DNA of 64,000 nucleotides from Halarcobacter sp. (GCA_963676565.1 OY781089.1:576001-640000), one strand, 5' to 3'; shown: positions 52,546-59,097, counted from the stretch's first letter. Notes: a model not told the origin generated them from the letters alone. Made by a program: numbers and translations.

Positions 52546-52620
52546 TGGTGGTCGTAACTGGATTTGAACCAGTGACCACCACCATGTCAAGGTGGCACTC
52601 TACCACTGAGTTATACGACC
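52546..52620 (-). tRNA. tRNA-Val (GAC), left copy
   Basis: GGTCGTATAACTCAGTGGTAGAGTGCCACCTT-GAC-ATGGTGGTGGTCACTGGTTCAAATCCAGTTACGACCACCA; cloverleaf with encoded CCA. Confidence 0.95.
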
Positions 52621-52652
52621 AGTTCGACGTTTGGTAGACTGTAAGTACTAAA

Positions 52653-52676
52653 GGTACACACAAACGATACACAAAA
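52653..52676 (+). repeat. Putative integrase arm-type sites, left (GGTACACACAA, GATACACAAAA)
   Basis: The 22-mer TACACACAAACGATACACAAAA at 52655-52676 recurs exactly at 58849-58870. Confidence 0.75.
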
Positions 52677-52708
52677 GGGCTTCAAGAATAAACACTTGGA
52701 GTTATTTT

Positions 52709-53923
52709 ATGAGCACGACCCTATCATATTTGAAGTCATCAACTAATGGCTTTTTTAAGTATAGAAGAAGAACCCCTAAACTACTTGAAGAGATTATAGG
52801 TTCAAGAGAAGTAATTAAAGCCCTAGGAACAAATGAAACTCAAGCTATTACTAAAGCAATAAAACTTAATAACCTCATCAATGAAGCTGTTGAGTTAAGT
52901 AAGATACAGTCTATACCTAAAGAGACTATTATAGAGTTACTAAAGAGTGAACTAAAGTTAACCACAAAGAAAACAAAAGAACAGAAAAAGAAACTATCAT
53001 ATTTCATTAAGTTATATCTTGAGCAATCTAATGTGACAGATAAAGAGTATAGATATAGAGAGTATTTCTTTAATGAATACTTACCATTACTTATAGAGGT
53101 TTTATTCAAGAAAAGAGATTTAGATATAGAAGAACTTACTTACGACAAGCTCTTAAAGATAAGAACATTATTTATGAAGCTACCTAGTAGGAACTTTTAT
53201 AAGTATAGAGTTGTAAATCAACTAGAGTTAGTCTCAAAGGTCAATAAAGGGACTCTAAAGATAGCTAAAGAACATTTACTATCAGAAGATACAATAAACA
53301 AGAACCTAAAGAGGATAAAGTCACTACTATTTTTTGCAAAAGAACTTAATTGCTATAGTCATAACATACCTAAAACACTTGTAATCAATCGTAAAGGAGA
53401 TACCTCATCAAGAGGAGAGAAAGCAATACTAACAAAGGATGACCTAGAGATTGTCTTTAGTCACACTAATGATGACCTTAAGTACCTATATGAAGTATCT
53501 TATTACTCAGGGATGAGAAGGTCAGAGTTGTATAAATGTAATATAGTAGACTATGAAGGTGTCTTATGCTTTGACCTAAAGAACATTACAGAAAGACTAA
53601 AGACAAGTTCAAGTTATAGACTTATTCCTATCCATAGTAAGTTACTTTATAGAATAAATGAGTTTAAGGACATTATAGAGAATACTAAAGCTGGCTGGAT
53701 TAGTAATAGTTTTAGTAGATTAGTTAAGAGGTCATTTAAAGATACAAAAGGCAAGTCTTTATATTCACTAAGACATACATTTGCTACTAATCTTATAGCC
53801 AATAAAGTTAATCCTGAGGTTATATCTGAACTTATGGGACACTCACACTCTACAATGACTATGAGTAGATATGTTAAAGGTTACCCTATTGAAACCCTTA
53901 GAGAGGCTATAGAATGTCTATAG
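52709..53923 (+). CDS. Tyrosine recombinase/integrase
   Basis: YSGMRRSE, LKT..S.R.IPIH, YSLRHTFA, LMGH, C-terminal RY; N-terminal YRRRTP arm-binding-like domain. Confidence 0.95.
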   Translation: MSTTLSYLKSSTNGFFKYRRRTPKLLEEIIGSREVIKALGTNETQAITKAIKLNNLINEAVELSKIQSIPKETIIELLKSELKLTTKKTKEQKKKLSYFIKLYLEQSNVTDKEYRYREYFFNEYLPLLIEVLFKKRDLDIEELTYDKLLKIRTLFMKLPSRNFYKYRVVNQLELVSKVNKGTLKIAKEHLLSEDTINKNLKRIKSLLFFAKELNCYSHNIPKTLVINRKGDTSSRGEKAILTKDDLEIVFSHTNDDLKYLYEVSYYSGMRRSELYKCNIVDYEGVLCFDLKNITERLKTSSSYRLIPIHSKLLYRINEFKDIIENTKAGWISNSFSRLVKRSFKDTKGKSLYSLRHTFATNLIANKVNPEVISELMGHSHSTMTMSRYVKGYPIETLREAIECL

Positions 53924-53985
53924 TCTCTTATAGAGGTTAGGTTAATCAATGTCACTAAGACCAATAAAATACAAAGGATAAAACA

Positions 53986-54261
53986 ATGATGTATATTGAA
54001 TTAGAAAGTATAGGACAAATGTTAAGAGTTGTAGATGGTAGTCTATGTATTGGAAATGAGGATGGTGAAGGAGTTTATGTAGATGAGCTTAGAAGCTCTA
54101 AAGGTAGAGAAATATACAAAAAGGTTAGTGAGTTAGAAAAAGAGCTTGTAGGTGCCCTTACAGAGCTTAAAGATATTGCTATTGATAAGGTAAAAAGAAA
54201 TGAGTTAGAGGGAGTTATAGAAGGCTTAGAGGCAGACTTTAAGAGTCTAATTGATTTTTAA
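53986..54261 (+). CDS. Hypothetical protein (element)
   Basis: AAGGA SD; 91 aa with C-terminal coiled coil. Confidence 0.6.
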   Translation: MMYIELESIGQMLRVVDGSLCIGNEDGEGVYVDELRSSKGREIYKKVSELEKELVGALTELKDIAIDKVKRNELEGVIEGLEADFKSLIDF

Positions 54262-54302
54262 ATGAAAACATATATAATAATATTTATTTTTAAGGAGAAG
54301 AC

Positions 54303-54659
54303 TTGGACAAATATTTAAGTATTGTACTTCCAATATTATCTGCATTAGTTATTTATTATACCTTCACTAAAAATAATGAAAATGAGGATAATAAAATATT
54401 AATCACAGAGTTTAATGGGCAAAAAGTTATTTTAGCTAACTGGAGTAAAGATAAATATATAAGAAGTGGCTATTATAAAGGACATTGTTATGTTTTTCCT
54501 ATTGAACATAAAGTGACATATCAATATGTAAATACAGAATATAAAGATTTACTAGCAAAAGAAAATATGATTGGACTAAAAGAAAGTAGTAGAGATTGTT
54601 TTTCTAGAGTTAGATTATTATATGATAAACCTAACGAACTAAAACCTATGAAGTTTTAA
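54303..54659 (+). CDS. Hypothetical membrane-anchored protein (AT-rich cargo)
   Basis: Own TATAAT and AAGGAG before a TTG start; N-terminal hydrophobic segment. Confidence 0.6.
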   Translation: MDKYLSIVLPILSALVIYYTFTKNNENEDNKILITEFNGQKVILANWSKDKYIRSGYYKGHCYVFPIEHKVTYQYVNTEYKDLLAKENMIGLKESSRDCFSRVRLLYDKPNELKPMKF

Positions 54660-54706
54660 CTTCTAAGATAACTGTTCAGTTCAAAGCTTATCTACTTACT
54701 TAAAGA

Positions 54707-54743
54707 AAAGAGGTCTGTAAGTCCACTTTACAGCTCTTCTTTT
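54707..54743 (+). terminator. Putative intrinsic terminator
   Basis: AAGAGGTCTGTAA / TTACAGCTCTT stem followed by CTTTT. Confidence 0.5.
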
Positions 54744-54809
54744 AATTTACCCTAATACTTTTATTACCTAACAACTAAAAAGCCTTGTAGCCTCCTCACA
54801 GAATATTTA

Positions 54810-54905
54810 TTAAAGATAACGACCTATAGGAGAGGACTTAATTTAGCAATCTCAGCAAATCCCTTAATTAAGGCTTTTTCTTAAGAGTGCCACCTATAGG
54901 AGGAA
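54810..54905 (+). promoter_or_regulatory. Two tandem phage-RNAP-promoter-like motifs (ACCTATAGGAG)
   Basis: Identical 11-mers at 54822 and 54892, each with AAGA at the same upstream offset. Confidence 0.45.
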
Positions 54906-54974
54906 AACCAAGAATGGACACTCTAGGAATAAACTATCTAAAAACTAAAATCAAAATCATAAAAGGAGGTTCAG

Positions 54975-55454
54975 ATGAACAACAATCAAACACAACTAAA
55001 AGAAGTTGTAATGTTTACTGATGGCTCTTGTTTAGATAATGGTAGAAATGGAACTGGAGGATACTGTGCATTACTACAGACACCAAACAAGAAACATCAA
55101 AAGATAATTAAAGGTAGTGAGTTAGATACTACGAACAATCGTATGGAGATAACAGCTATCATAGAAGGGCTTAAGGCAATTAAAAAGCCTTCTAAAGTTA
55201 CAGTTTATAGTGACTCAAACATCACTGTAAGAGCTATTAATGAATGGCTTGAAAGATGGATAAGGAAGAACTTTAGGAAGGTTGCTAATGTTGACCTTTG
55301 GAAAGAGTATTTAGAGGTATCAGCTAAACATCAAGTTAAGGCTATATGGGTTAAAGCTCATAGTGGTATTTATGAGAATGAACTTGTAGATGATATAGCT
55401 AGAAGTGAGGCTATGAAGTTGCATGGCAAGAGAGGTATTCATTATGGGTACTAA
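54975..55454 (+). CDS. rnhA: Ribonuclease HI (element-encoded)
   Basis: FTDGSC, TTNNRME, YSDS, NVDLW, WVKAHSG, NELVD; AGGAGG SD. Confidence 0.95.
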   Translation: MNNNQTQLKEVVMFTDGSCLDNGRNGTGGYCALLQTPNKKHQKIIKGSELDTTNNRMEITAIIEGLKAIKKPSKVTVYSDSNITVRAINEWLERWIRKNFRKVANVDLWKEYLEVSAKHQVKAIWVKAHSGIYENELVDDIARSEAMKLHGKRGIHYGY

Positions 55455-56694
55455 GATTACTATAATTGATGGAGTATGTGGCTCAGGAAAGAGTCAAGGT
55501 ATTATAAAACAAATGAAAGAACAAAGCTATAAGAAGTGGATTTGTTTTACTCAGTTCATTAGTGAATGTCATAGATACGCTGGAACTCAACCTATATCTA
55601 AGAAGAATGATGAACCAAAGAGAAGGAAAGATGGAACTTTAATCTATGATGAACCATCAGAGTTTAACTGTTCAGAGCTAGAGTTCAAACATCCACTGAG
55701 AAAAGGTAGAGGTCAGAAGAAAGAGGACTTAATAGAACTCCTTAAACAAAGAGAAAACATAGTTACAACCCATCAAATGCTTACAAACATAGGTTCAGAT
55801 GTACAAGAGTTAATCTCTGAGTTGTCTTATGTAGCTGTACTTGATGAAGTTGTAGACCCTATACAAGAGTATAAGATTACATCAAACAACAAAAAGGAAC
55901 TCTTTGAGCATGAGTATGTCTATCTATCTGATGATGGAGTGACCTTATGTTGGAACTATGAGAAATACCCTGATAGAAAGAAGGGAGATAACTTCTACAA
56001 AGAGAAACAGTTGATTGATAGTGGAAACTTAATCCTTTTAGATGGTAGTATTTATCTGTGGGAAATGTCAGAGAGTCTCTTCAACTCATTTACAGAGGTT
56101 TACATACTTACATATCAGTTTGAAGGTTCTCCATTGATGTGGTTCTTTAAAGCTAAAGGGATAAAGTATGAAGTACACTATAAACCTAAAGCTAATGTAA
56201 AGTATGGAGACCTAATCAATATCATTGAAGATGAAAGACTAAACTCTATTGGAGATAGTCCCAACTTCTTATCTTCAAACCGAACTAGAAAGTTATCTCA
56301 AGGAGAAATAAGAGACCTTAAAGCTAATCTAAACCATCTAAGAAAAAGAGTATGGAATGATGGGGAAGATAGAATGTGGACTTGTTTAGGTAGTGCTAAA
56401 GATGACTTAGGTGTTAATGGGTGGAAGAAAGGATTTGTACCATTCAACATTAGGGGCTCTAATGACTATAGACAAGTTAAGAACTGTGCTTACTTGTTCA
56501 ATGTATTTCTAAACCCAAACATCACTAAGTACTTTAGTAAGTATGATGTGACAGTTGATGAAGATACTTATGCTCTTAACAGTTTACTTCAATGGTTGTT
56601 TAGGTCTAGGCTAAGAGATGGTAAGTCAGTTAGTGTCTATATCCCCTCAAAGAGGATGAGGGAACTACTTAAAGAGTGGTGTAGACATAACTAA
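55444..56694 (+). CDS. SF2/DExx-like helicase, probable replication protein
   Basis: Walker A DGVCGSGKS, IVTTH, Walker B VLDEV, YILTY, QWLFRSRLR; ATG at 55444 after GAGG, overlapping the rnhA end. Confidence 0.75.
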   Translation: MGTKITIIDGVCGSGKSQGIIKQMKEQSYKKWICFTQFISECHRYAGTQPISKKNDEPKRRKDGTLIYDEPSEFNCSELEFKHPLRKGRGQKKEDLIELLKQRENIVTTHQMLTNIGSDVQELISELSYVAVLDEVVDPIQEYKITSNNKKELFEHEYVYLSDDGVTLCWNYEKYPDRKKGDNFYKEKQLIDSGNLILLDGSIYLWEMSESLFNSFTEVYILTYQFEGSPLMWFFKAKGIKYEVHYKPKANVKYGDLINIIEDERLNSIGDSPNFLSSNRTRKLSQGEIRDLKANLNHLRKRVWNDGEDRMWTCLGSAKDDLGVNGWKKGFVPFNIRGSNDYRQVKNCAYLFNVFLNPNITKYFSKYDVTVDEDTYALNSLLQWLFRSRLRDGKSVSVYIPSKRMRELLKEWCRHN

Positions 56695-56871
56695 AACTAC
56701 TAATGGACACAAAGTGTGAAGCTAAAAGTGTCCAATATGAAAGTTAAACCCCTATTGATGGTATCTACAGAGGTTTATCTGTAAAGAACAACAATCTTAA
56801 ATACTTTAAGTAGAGACTAACGGATAACTTTACTTGATGGTTAATCTAGATGACCTATAAATTAATTAATA

Positions 56872-56999
56872 TAGAAATGAGTTTAGGTTAAAGGTATAGT
56901 AGTCCTAAATGTAGCGCTATAACTAGACCTTAATCTCATTTCTAAACAATCATAAGCTTAGAGTCAATACTTAAGAGATGACTATAGATTGACTTTAAG
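56872..56999 (+). repeat. Two consecutive inverted repeats (28-bp imperfect stem; 12-bp stem)
   Basis: 56872-56899/56917-56944 and 56957-56968/56988-56999. Confidence 0.7.
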
Positions 57000-57059
57000 T
57001 AACTACTTCACTACGTGTGTCTTTTATACTATCTATTCTATTTCTTAATATTAATTCAT

Positions 57060-57899
57060 TTAATCCTCTAAAGTCTTTTTTTGTCTATATTTAGAAATTA
57101 ATATAGTTGCGACTATTGAACTTCCAACTCCTAAAATAAAACTTAATGCATTTTGTAATAGTATGTCATACCAAGATTGTGATTTAATAGCCTCTTTAAA
57201 AGACTCAATTTGTTGTTCAGTAAGCTTTTCTAATTCTTTTGCCTTATTATATTCTTGTTCAATTATTTTCTTTGCTTTTTGTGTTTTCTGCATATCTTCT
57301 TTAATATCATTTAGTTGAACCTCTAAGTCTTTTAGATTTCCTATTGCAAGTTCTACATTTTGTATTTTTTTCTCTAAAGTTGGTTTTTGGATTTTTAAAG
57401 TAAAAGAAAATAATAAAAGTAAAACTGAAATAATTGATACAAAAGAAGAAATAGTTAATATTCTATTTTGTGTTAAAGAACGTTTTTTTGCTACTTTAAT
57501 CTGTTTAATATTTATTTTATCATTTTTAGTTAAAGTAATAAGTTCTTCTACATCTACTATCTTTATTTTTGCAATTGATAAAGCATTCTTTTCAACTTCC
57601 TTTTTTAATAAATCATCAGCTCTTTTTGTTAATTTTCCTGATGTTATCAATATAAAAACTTTAATTTTAGGAGTAAGTGAAAGTAACTTAAAAAAGATTT
57701 TAATATAATCAATATCAATACTCTTATGATGTTTAATTTCTATAGCAACTGTTCCATTATTTGCAATTAAGTCAAAACTGCCATCTAAGTTATACTCATA
57801 ATTATAAACATCAGGAGCAATATTTTTAATATTACTTAAACAAAAATCTTCAAACTCTTCTCCAGTTAATGCATATAAATCTTCTTTTGTGTATTTCAT
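57060..57899 (-). CDS. Mrr-like restriction endonuclease domain fused to TM-coiled coil-TM
   Basis: LTGEEFEDF, DGSFDLIA, IEIK, ILITSG; hydrophobic segments at about aa 147-167 and 250-269. Confidence 0.75.
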   Translation of the reverse strand: MKYTKEDLYALTGEEFEDFCLSNIKNIAPDVYNYEYNLDGSFDLIANNGTVAIEIKHHKSIDIDYIKIFFKLLSLTPKIKVFILITSGKLTKRADDLLKKEVEKNALSIAKIKIVDVEELITLTKNDKINIKQIKVAKKRSLTQNRILTISSFVSIISVLLLLFSFTLKIQKPTLEKKIQNVELAIGNLKDLEVQLNDIKEDMQKTQKAKKIIEQEYNKAKELEKLTEQQIESFKEAIKSQSWYDILLQNALSFILGVGSSIVATILISKYRQKKTLED

Positions 57900-58112
57900 T
57901 TATTCTCCAATTATAACTATAAGTATTATAACTTTTAGACTCTTAATAATTTATACTTTATTTTAAGATTATTGTAGCGAAGAGGCTCCTATAAGTGACA
58001 CCATAGAGACACTTATGACACAGTTGAAGATGACTGGAACTGTTCAAGAAACTCATGTGTGAGTGATTACAGTAGCTCTTATAGTAGTACAAGTGATTTC
58101 TAGGAGGTGACT

Positions 58113-58346
58113 ATGAAAATATTAGAGATTGTAGATAAAAAGATAGCTGAACTTGAAGCAGAAGTTAAATACTTTGAGGAGTCATTTGAAGGATGGCATG
58201 AAGAGATTGAGAAGGAAGGTTACCCTATTGCTGGAGATTTCTTTGGTCATTCTGATGACTGCTTTGATATGGGTATAGAGTATGGTGAAGGTCTAAAAGC
58301 TAGAGAGACTTTAACGTTTTTGAAGAAACTTAGAGGAGGTGAATAA
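58113..58346 (+). CDS. Hypothetical acidic phage-like protein
   Basis: AGGAGGTG SD before the ATG at 58113; TAATG coupling to the next gene. Confidence 0.65.
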   Translation: MKILEIVDKKIAELEAEVKYFEESFEGWHEEIEKEGYPIAGDFFGHSDDCFDMGIEYGEGLKARETLTFLKKLRGGE

Positions 58347-58813
58347 TGGAGTTAATTAAAGTAGATATTAGTGAAGAAGTTGTAGTAGAGGTTCAGCCAC
58401 ACGAAGAGCATGAATGGTTGTTGTCAAGTAAAGATGTGGCTGAGGGTTATGGTTTGAGTGCTAGTGGTTTGAGAATGACTAAAAAGAGATACTCAGATGA
58501 ACTAGAAGAAGGTGTACATTTTATCAATGTCACAAATAGTGATATTGGTGGCAGACCCTCAGTTTATTGGACTAAAGAAGGTGTAGTAATGTTAGGGTTC
58601 TTCATTAAGACACCTACAGCTAAAGAGTTTAGAAGATGGGCTTCAAACTTTATTGTTGAGAAGAGTAAAGAACCAAAAGCTCCAGCTGTACCTCAGACAT
58701 ACCTAGAGGCACTTCAAGCTCACTTAGAGTCAGTACAACAACTTGAAGAGGCTAATAAGGTAATTGCTTTACAAAAAATAGTAAAAATATCTGAAAGGAC
58801 ATATACGTATTAG
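58346..58813 (+). CDS. Phage antirepressor-like protein (ORF6N/Bro-N-like), apparently C-terminally truncated
   Basis: SSKDVAEGYG, EGVHF, WTKEGV.MLGFFIK...AKEFRRW, PQTYLEAL linker. Confidence 0.75.
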   Translation: MELIKVDISEEVVVEVQPHEEHEWLLSSKDVAEGYGLSASGLRMTKKRYSDELEEGVHFINVTNSDIGGRPSVYWTKEGVVMLGFFIKTPTAKEFRRWASNFIVEKSKEPKAPAVPQTYLEALQAHLESVQQLEEANKVIALQKIVKISERTYTY

Positions 58814-58846
58814 AGCAGATTAATTTTCCCCCGTAGGGTATCAAAA

Positions 58847-58900
58847 GATACACACAAACGATACACAAAAATGCAAAAGGTACACAAAAAAGTGTGTATC
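58847..58900 (+). repeat. Putative integrase arm-type sites, right (three direct, one inverted)
   Basis: GATACACACAA at 58847, GATACACAAAA at 58860, GGTACACAAAA at 58879, inverted GTGTGTATC at 58892-58900. Confidence 0.75.
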
Positions 58901-58993
58901 ATTCAGCTATAATTAAGTTTTTGTTAAGATTGTAAATGTTAAAGTTTTGGACTTGAAAGTCCTATTTGAAGGTATCTAGGAGTCAATCTTAAG

Positions 58994-59068
58994 TGGTGGT
59001 CGTAACTGGATTTGAACCAGTGACCACCACCATGTCAAGGTGGCACTCTACCACTGAGTTATACGACC
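58994..59068 (-). tRNA. tRNA-Val (GAC), right copy (keeps the chromosomal upstream region)
   Basis: Identical to 52546-52620. Confidence 0.95.
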
Positions 59069-59097
59069 AAAAGAGTGAAATATTATCTTATTAGAAC

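Follow-up and report, generated by a model that had tools for sequence, protein, structure and literature searches.

The island described here occupies positions 52546..59069 of a 64,000-nt stretch of a Halarcobacter sp. genome (GCA_963676565.1, OY781089.1:576001-640000). This whole stretch is referred to as the window, and all island coordinates are positions in it. The island consists of 6,372 bp between two 76-bp direct repeats at a tRNA-Val(GAC) gene. It is a discrete integrated element and an intact member of an apparently undescribed family of small tRNA-targeting integrative islands with two variable cargo slots. Its core operon encodes a ribonuclease HI (RNase HI) and a helicase-like ATPase of the YonV family. 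Two promoter look-alikes of the T7 (single-subunit polymerase) class precede this operon. The preferred reading, which we hold at even balance, is that the island is a phage-polymerase-responsive hitcher, possibly a satellite of T7-like phages.

T7-class promoter look-alikes precede the core operon

The first look-alike, P1 (54806..54835, + strand), reads ...ACGACCTATA up to the predicted +1 at 54829, where GGAGAGG follows. In the second, P2 (54876..54907, + strand), TTAAGAGTGCCACCTATA is followed by GGAGGAAAA from the predicted +1 at 54899. Both are intergenic and lie 70 nt apart on the strand of the operon. P2 is the nearer one to RNase H, 76 nt before its start codon. T7-class promoters are recognized as about 23 contiguous bases with a conserved start, (C/T)ATA and then GGAG from +1, located between genes and directed with them. 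P1 and P2 both have this form. The conserved part of the motif is the -4 to +6 core, as in real promoters of the class, and it is oriented with the operon.

The tandem ...TATAGGAG motifs and the lack of GATC had been pointed out in a preliminary description made from the sequence, and both are present as claimed. CCTATAGGAG is found twice, at 54823 and 54893, with 0.05 occurrences expected in the window. The tandem pair of the island is the only case in the whole 3.34-Mb genome of two TATAGGAG copies on the same strand within 150 nt. In the three close elements, those of this genome (G000), G006 and G005, the motif belongs to a repeated unit whose copy number varies.

Two T7-like proviruses served for comparison. 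The genome G336, from the same order, contains a prophage with the full T7 gene order as assigned by PHROGs (approximately C1 1614600-1658800, L370-L372). The order starts with a polymerase, a gp2.5-like protein, an endonuclease, a primase-helicase, a DNA polymerase and an exonuclease. The connector comes next, then scaffold, capsid and tail, the internal proteins, the fibre, the lysin, the large terminase and the integrase. Five intergenic, co-directional sites ...GCCACTTATAGGAG(A/G)AAA are present in this prophage. The second provirus, G200 from IMG/VR, measures 41.5 kb, has a G+C content of 57.5% and encodes a T7-type polymerase (PF00940, E-value 1e-115). It has seven co-directional copies of ...ACCCCTCACCATAG(G/C), which share their core with the motifs of the related islands L038, L039 and L041.

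With an 18-nt core matrix derived from the five G336 sites alone, P2 is the top match in the 3.34-Mb genome (31.3 bits versus 20.6 bits for the runner-up). P2 is also the sole match in 3.34 Mb to a 19-nt pattern when up to two mismatches are permitted. In the T7 record NC_001604 the start sites of phi1.1A and phi1.1B are 75 nt apart and phi1.1B reads ...CACTATAGGAGAAC. When the two are aligned in this register without gaps, P2 agrees with phi1.1B at 16 of 24 positions.

The motif recurs at this position across the family. The 11 regions that immediately precede RNase H or YonV (4,538 nt) contain 18 matches to YAKAGGA, spread over eight of them, where 0.8 are expected from the genome rate of 0.176 per kb per strand. 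Eight intergenic regions elsewhere in these elements (3,892 nt) contain none. Because G000 and G006 as well as G005 and L035 are close pairs, the eight positive regions represent about six independent lineages. In the three regions without a strict match look-alikes are visible by eye, and L040 has three tandem units ending in ...CCACTA(G/A)GG. The motifs recur upstream of the operon even where the helicase is 34% identical and the intergenic DNA is otherwise unalignable. Furthermore, motif variants in different elements track the variants of the two proviruses, G200 and G336.

The RNase H-helicase operon and the region behind it

RNase HI (54975..55454, + strand, 159 residues) is readily assigned (PF00075, E-value 3e-37; NF001236 with 155.8 bits, just under the cut-off of 160). 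It is an extra copy, as two other RNase H loci exist in the genome. The helicase gene (55423..56694, + strand, 423 residues) overlaps the RNase H gene by 32 nt. Its product is a superfamily 2 (SF2) helicase-like P-loop ATPase that matches phrog_2467 over residues 8-420 (E-value 2.5e-62). There are 380 homologues at E-values of 1e-10 or below, and PF27199 is the family precomputed on homologues. In their alignment Gly20, Gly22 and Lys23 of a Walker A-like motif are nearly invariant, and Asp141-Glu142 is invariant.

The AlphaFold2 model of the helicase is of high confidence (predicted local distance difference test score, pLDDT, of 86.4) and displays a two-domain SF2 helicase. The best Foldseek matches of this model are XPD and DinG, with E-values of 1e-8 to 1e-6 and TM-scores of about 0.45-0.5. 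A sequence search of the PDB with the helicase gave no match. Homologues with 28-38% identity are present in 56 GenBank phage records, including yonV of SPbeta. IMG/VR yielded 581 candidate stretches, 551 of which code for a relative; most of these lie on contigs of 50-140 kb. Judged by these homologues the helicase is of phage stock. No function has been published for YonV in the literature surveyed. In G005 (L019 9342-10596) two or three frames take the place of an uninterrupted helicase gene; this genome is 81% complete and consists of one contig, and the split could be a real pseudogene or an assembly error.

A conserved, structured non-coding region (56695..57050, + strand) travels with the helicase gene. 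Its mean column identity across five elements is 82%, and the conservation of these approximately 350 nt equals that of coding DNA. With an nhmmer profile of the region it was also located behind YonV in L036, L032 and L041, the helicases of which are 34% identical. The RNA fold of the + strand has a z-score of -3.0. A long hairpin (56872-56899 with 56917-56944) is kept, and three of its 16 pairs covary. The region also contains a weaker P3-like motif, CTTAAGAG...CTATAG (56970-56987). In G066 (L030 9314-9870) the second half of the region, hairpin included, is tandemly duplicated.

Integration site and mobility

The terminal repeats are 100% identical over 76 nt, and each is a complete tRNA-Val(GAC) gene on the - strand with an Rfam match. 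The left copy (52546..52621) corresponds to the att core and the right copy (58994..59069) is the second repeat. The preliminary description had proposed integration at tRNA-Val between 76-bp direct repeats, and this is borne out. The insertion site lies between a gene of the DctP family and an asparagine synthase-like gene. Two sister species (G014 and G010) have the same two neighbour genes around a single tRNA-Val, i.e. an empty site, with flanks 90-92% identical.

An empty form was found closer still. In run X7, the organism and study codes of which are those of run X1, which contains the whole stretch, a 563-nt contig bridges position 52545 to position 58994. The 76 letters of the repeat fit either side, and the two pieces of the contig have 0 and 1 differences. 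All four sequencing runs compared consist of contigs, and the X7 contig demonstrates the existence of the empty form, not its frequency. Among the runs listed, no RNA run contains the stretch. As the att repeats are identical and an empty site occurs in a run with the same organism label, the island probably moved recently and precisely. X7 additionally has five pieces identical to island parts, within 54882-55032 (promoters and RNase H start) and 57781-58991 (N-terminus of the cargo protein to the right arm), and its depth over the integrase and helicase genes is zero. The culture could have been mixed, or the genome in question could contain a mosaic relative at another place.

Two direct repeats of arm type, G(G/A)TACACA(C)AAA, are located 30 nt from the core and adjoin the integrase gene (52653..52677, + strand). 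They are conserved in G006. A repeat scan located three direct copies and one inverted copy in the right arm (58847..58899, + strand). With up to one mismatch, five of the eight matches in the window fall in the two island ends; 1.7 are expected in the window. By its pattern this arrangement is that of integrase arm sites around an att core, and the attP-like site beside the integrase gene comprises the whole tRNA-Val and the arms.

G006 carries a 5.4-kb version of the island at the same tRNA-Val site. Its integrase is 97.5% identical and a counterpart of the cargo gene is missing. The terminal repeat of G006 extends about 10 nt past the tRNA, and its two copies differ from this genome by the same two substitutions. 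A DNA search with the whole island against phages matched only the tRNA, and an Rfam scan of the island returned tRNAs only, apart from sub-threshold matches overlapping them. Several genomes of the genus have paralogues of the flanking DctP-family gene, either in tandem or close by (L018 9430-11731 in G006; C1:651867-652862 of G000, just past the right end of the window).

A family of small islands next to tRNA genes

The gene order recurs at 12 loci of 5-12 kb, which were drawn from genomes of the bacterial family and from metagenome contigs: the window, G006, G005, G066, G181, G013, G016, L035, L038, L040, L041 and L039. It begins with an integrase with a DUF6538-like N-terminus, a homologue of the small protein orf91, optional cargo, a small serine recombinase and/or RNase HI, and the YonV helicase. 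Behind the helicase comes the conserved non-coding region, which may be followed by cargo on the other strand. A protein of the KilA-N, BRO-N, Rha or AntA type and the tRNA complete the order. The small serine recombinase is present in many members. The helicase occurs in six of 184 genomes of the bacterial family.

Some loci are partial or deviate. G013 has a helicase fragment only, L039 is partial, and G016 has RNase H without YonV. The G016 protein found in the helicase place was rejected as a relative (hhalign probability 2%). The 12-kb locus of G181 (L031 706-4015) has two tyrosine integrase genes at its left end and may consist of two elements integrated in tandem.

An undescribed family in Campylobacterota had been suggested. 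The 12 loci, genomes of the bacterial family among them, support the family as such, but it is not limited to Campylobacterota-like low-GC isolates, since metagenomic members were found too. Conserved synteny at tRNA-Val had also been put up for testing. The order is kept at 12 loci, but the tRNA varies (Val, Arg, Leu, Thr or Cys).

The preliminary description considered that homologous loci might all turn out to be large prophages, which would make the island a deletion remnant. The helicase, RNase H and Ant-like genes do all have phage homologues, and T7-like prophages with an integrase exist in the order. In principle a larger prophage, whether T7-like or of another kind, could have decayed to an integrase and a few early genes. 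All 12 loci are nevertheless small islands without structural genes: no capsid, portal, terminase, tail, primase or polymerase match was obtained at any of them. Every reading frame of the island studied here is intact, and the compact order is found at several different tRNAs. The prophage of G336 has no DNA or protein similarity to the island beyond the promoter core. Together with the identical att repeats and the empty site, which argue for recent precise movement, these observations make a remnant highly improbable.

GATC is absent from the 6,372 bp of the island, for which a Markov model predicts 15.9 occurrences; outside the island the window contains about one per kb. Nine family elements contain 0-1 GATC each versus 15-34 expected. 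The host DNA of the whole window is itself about 3-fold depleted (56 GATC versus 164 expected), and CATG, CTAG and GGCC are also low. The host depletion suggests restriction pressure on these sites.

Other genes and features of the island

The island holds eight credible genes. The gene content listed in the preliminary description was recovered: an integrase, RNase HI, an SF2-like helicase, an antirepressor-like protein and a cargo gene of Mrr type. None of the eight open reading frames (ORFs) scanned against Pfam and PHROGs matched a capsid, terminase, primase or polymerase family.

The tyrosine integrase (52709..53923, + strand, 404 residues) matches PF00589 (E-value 3e-12) and phrog_1 (E-value 3e-30). 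Its N-terminus is DUF6538-like with 23.7 bits, under the cut-off of 27. The adjacent orf91 (53986..54261, + strand) encodes a small acidic protein of 91 residues that is kept beside the integrase across the family. It has no Pfam or PHROG match, and homologues with 79-28% identity exist in G006, G005, L035, G066 and L041. Its AlphaFold2 model is of low confidence (pLDDT 68.8). The product of orf118 (54303..54659, + strand, 118 residues) has a hydrophobic N-terminal stretch and no family match. It is specific to this element, as tblastn gave no match in the six relatives searched, G006 among them. Its position is the slot for cargo or a small serine recombinase in relatives.

A hairpin with a T-tract (54707..54748, + strand) was read from the sequence and closes the integrase-side module in the manner of a terminator. 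It is part of a block that is invariant in G000, G006 and G005. A simple terminator scan did not pick it up, and a scan of the island for sigma-70 promoters and terminators found fewer sites than in shuffled sequence.

The cargo gene (57060..57899, - strand) encodes 279 residues: an N-terminal Mrr-type PD-(D/E)xK nuclease domain and then a hydrophobic and coiled-coil tail. Mrr_cat (PF04471) was found when residues 1-120 were scanned alone (E-value 4.4e-6; 27.2 bits, cut-off 21) but was missing from the result for the complete protein. A language-model look-up gives the same family. The G+C content of the gene is 22-25% versus 33-38% for the core genes. One of the two cargo slots is thus taken up here by a membrane-anchored nuclease of the Mrr type. 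Cargo in relatives includes endonuclease I, MazG-like and NOV_C proteins, and an HNH protein with a type I restriction subunit (R) beside L039.

Further to the right, orf79 (58107..58346, + strand) encodes a small acidic protein of 79 residues without a Pfam or PHROG match. It is followed by a BRO-N or antirepressor-like DNA-binding protein (58346..58813, + strand, 155 residues), which is termed Ant-like in this report. It matches PHROG Ant families with E-values down to 9e-11 and Pfam Bro-N with 3e-4, below the cut-off. KilA-N, Rha, AntA or BRO-N proteins occupy its position in relatives. The TTCCCCCGTAGGG motif that had been noticed near the right end is present just after this gene (58826..58838, + strand) and kept with two changes in G006, but a phage link is not detectable. 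Its 15 matches in IMG/VR are scattered, it is absent from the G336 prophage, and the one match that falls in G200 lies in a stretch unlike the promoter sites of that provirus.

Proposed mechanism and alternative explanations

If the island responds to a phage polymerase, its core operon would stay silent until a T7-like phage infects and supplies RNA polymerase. This polymerase would transcribe the RNase H-helicase operon and perhaps, via the weaker P3-like site, the Ant-like module. The island would then excise. RNase HI and the XPD/DinG-like helicase could process R-loops or transcripts from the tandem promoters into primers for the phage replisome; both would be suited to act on RNA-DNA hybrids, and DinG is known for an R-loop-related activity. 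The region downstream of the T7 RNA polymerase gene is the primary replication origin of T7. As the layout of the island resembles the phi1.1A/phi1.1B pair in that region, the phage replisome may copy the island. The hairpin region could act as a terminator for the phage polymerase, as an origin or as a packaging signal. In the case of satellite behaviour, concatemers of the island would be packaged in helper capsids, and about six copies of 6.4 kb would be needed to fill a 40-kb head. It is assumed that RNase H and the helicase constitute the replication module. Transfer between cells under restriction pressure would fit both the cargo and the scarcity of GATC.

A more specific proposal is tentative and in our judgement rather doubtful. 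According to it, the islands are the first satellites of T7-like (Autographiviridae-type) phages, devoid of polymerase, primase and virion genes and wired to the helper polymerase by copies of its promoter pair. Transcripts trimmed by RNase HI and unwound by the helicase would prime copying, concatemers would be packaged, and the promoter variants of the lineages would be tuned to different phages. The literature searched, which does not cover subscription journals, yielded neither a satellite with an Autographiviridae-type helper nor an island driven by promoters for a phage polymerase, and nothing relevant on Arcobacter phages and islands. If the polymerase of a T7-like phage does switch the islands on, carrying the invader's own promoter would be a simple way of sensing infection. 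It would also be a first function for the YonV helicase family, which is widespread in phages and unstudied. Furthermore, the finding points to T7-like phages of Campylobacterales without a close cultured relative.

Several observations weigh against a phage-polymerase-responsive satellite, and the first group concerns the promoters. When the G336 matrix is widened to include positions -16 to -10, P2 drops to 12th place in the genome with 12.0 bits, whereas the sites of the prophage itself reach 35-42. P1 and P2 are unlike each other in the -17 to -5 part, and so are the copies in G005, G006 and G066. Such variation of the upstream half between tandem copies within one element is not expected to be tolerated by a single polymerase. 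The conserved AGGAG can also be read as a ribosome-binding site.

The second group concerns the helper, and here the same variation, the 12th place of P2 and the lack of a helper lend weight to a different explanation, in which the island is a self-contained integrative element independent of phages. PF00940 is absent from the island's own genome, and none of the 184 genomes searched from the bacterial family has it; the control genomes also lack it, but it was detected in G200, G336 and G518. In a sample of 401 genomes of the phylum it occurs in three, which belong to a single genus of this order. Phage_capsid, TerL_ATPase and Terminase_6N, which were matched in 3-5 of 14 control genomes, gave no match in the genome that carries the island. 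Scans of IMG/VR with the motif variants of the elements returned 27, 91 and 2 single matches, none clustered on one contig. BLAST checks of the 27 and the 2 found them unrelated to the island apart from the typed motif, and the 91 were left out of the comparison. No helper phage was identified. Accordingly, the Autographiviridae-type helper to which the cis signals had been taken to point is backed by the core match to G336, G200 and T7 phi1.1B and by the recurrence across the family, but not by a phage. The comparison with T7-like prophages that had been recommended gave the core match in G336, from the same order, but no T7-type polymerase in any of the 184 genomes of the bacterial family.

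In a self-contained element the motifs would be operators or iterons for its own proteins (BRO-N/KilA-N, helicase, resolvase) or part of an origin. The likeness to T7 promoters would be convergent or inherited from a phage ancestor, and transfer would proceed by natural transformation or vesicles. The short palindromes in the motifs (CTTAAG, CCTATAGG) would suit dimeric binders. Moreover, the tycheposons, which are of similar build, are reported to be enriched in vesicles (bioRxiv 10.1101/2020.12.28.424599). The T7-class core from -4 to +6 is however kept and operon-oriented in lineages with helicases 34% identical, and its variants follow those of two T7-like proviruses. A self-contained element is therefore considered unlikely.

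The third group of adverse observations concerns replication and packaging. No replication initiator was recognized among the island genes, and an XPD/DinG-like SF2 helicase would be atypical as a replicative helicase. In the 80 phage loci retained for the helicase, no RNase H, resolvase or integrase of the island kind was found within 8 kb (tblastn, E-values of 1e-5 or below). An AntA-like gene lies downstream of the helicase in six of these 80 loci. A search of viral contigs with the island helicase alone, which reaches close relatives only, recovered none. There is consequently no sign of encapsidation from this search. Finally, the contigs of run X1 contain no junction of an attP circle.

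The lack of a packaging sign in viral contigs and in the X1 contigs would be no obstacle if the island were a phage-triggered defence island rather than a satellite. The T7-type promoters would then be a sensor, and the phage polymerase would turn on RNase HI and the R-loop helicase, perhaps also the Ant-like protein, to destroy the RNA primers and R-loops of the phage. Movement would be rare, by integrase and transformation or generalized transduction, with no specific packaging. This explanation draws on the same promoter evidence as the satellite reading. RNase HI and the XPD/DinG-like fold both stand for R-loop-related activities, and the cargo here (Mrr domain) and in the relatives resembles defence genes. 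On the other hand, PADLOC matched nothing on the island except candidate families for the Ant-like protein, i.e. neither RNase H nor the helicase nor the cargo. The core travels with an integrase, att arms, a structured non-coding region and in many members a small serine recombinase, which has the look of a mobility and replication kit and not of a defence operon that stays in place. The near-total loss of GATC across the family also suggests frequent passage from cell to cell. A defence island is accordingly regarded as a minor possibility, and the phage-polymerase-responsive hitcher or satellite remains the preferred reading.

The G336 polymerase has 2,709 matching phage records, none at 60% identity or more, and identity is near 34% among the matches listed. 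IMG/VR contains no close relative of it. The G336 prophage also carries a DNA methyltransferase, and its DNA polymerase is present as two ORFs, the second with an AntA-like match within it. A further T7-like prophage of the same Campylobacterales genus is found in G518:C14. In G483, weak PF00940 matches (C1:172127-172342 and C10:58486-58701) lie within an open frame of 3,434 residues that is present twice, beside polymerase-like ORFs of 644 residues.

Comparison with known systems

The preliminary description stated that the gene set fits no known satellite family. This was upheld: the island falls outside the definition of PICMI and outside those of the SatelliteFinder families P4, PICI, cf-PICI and PLE. 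P4, PICI and cf-PICI have a primase or replication initiator and genes for packaging or capsid redirection (small terminase, sid/psu, cpm, head genes). The integrase of PLE is a large serine recombinase, and its biology is specific to ICP1. All four resemble the island in having an integrase, a regulatory or antirepressor-like gene and accessory defence genes, and in lacking a full set of virion genes. Unlike P4, PICI and cf-PICI, the island has no match to a primase, initiator, AlpA, small terminase, capsid-size or head gene, although its three matchless small ORFs could be novel analogues. In contrast to PLE, its integrase is a tyrosine recombinase (PF00589).

The phi1.1A/phi1.1B pair of T7 is similar in consisting of two promoters of the same class on the same strand with a spacing of 70-75 nt, followed by AT-rich DNA with words of the CTTAAG type. 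P1 and P2 have ...TATAGGAGA in common with phi1.1B. The -17 to -5 part differs, and the island pair precedes the RNase H-helicase operon without a polymerase gene.

The PICMI of Vibrionaceae are marine islands of about 6 kb located beside fis, with int, alpA (PF05930/PF12728) and a primase (DUF3987/DUF5906) as mandatory genes (PMC10803314). They too are very small, have an integrase and defence cargo and no capsid-remodelling genes, and they depend on a non-resident phage (PMC10803314). PICMI is also reported to be packaged as concatemers (PMC10803314); a 6.4-kb island in a T7-type head of about 40 kb would likewise need concatemers. In contrast, the eight ORFs of the island include an integrase and no match to AlpA or primase (Pfam, PHROGs, NCBIfam). 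The island is located in tRNA-Val and not beside fis, its core is RNase HI with an SF2 helicase, and the suspected trigger is a set of promoters for a phage polymerase.

VEIMEs are integrative elements of marine origin and small size that were recovered from virus particles and have tyrosine integrases; primase/helicases, AlpA, small terminases and excisionases are common among their genes (PMC9618062). The small size, the integration and the tyrosine integrase are shared with the island. VEIMEs were however found in virus particles, whereas the search for close relatives of the helicase did not recover the island family from viral contigs. In the main text of the VEIME paper (PMC9618062) RNase H is mentioned 0 times and T7-like once, in the reference list only. 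The main text of the tycheposon preprint (bioRxiv 10.1101/2020.12.28.424599) likewise has 0 occurrences each of RNase H and T7-like.

Tycheposons, as described in that preprint (bioRxiv 10.1101/2020.12.28.424599), have tRNA-targeting tyrosine recombinases, replication genes of modular kind such as helicases, small serine recombinases as part of the hallmark set, and cargo slots; some are satellite-like, and they are reported from other marine bacteria as well. They leave partial copies of the tRNA (bioRxiv 10.1101/2020.12.28.424599), whereas the island duplicates the whole tRNA. By this description tycheposons are the closest to the island in build, with a tRNA-targeting tyrosine recombinase, att repeats, a helicase and cargo, and with a small serine recombinase in its relatives.

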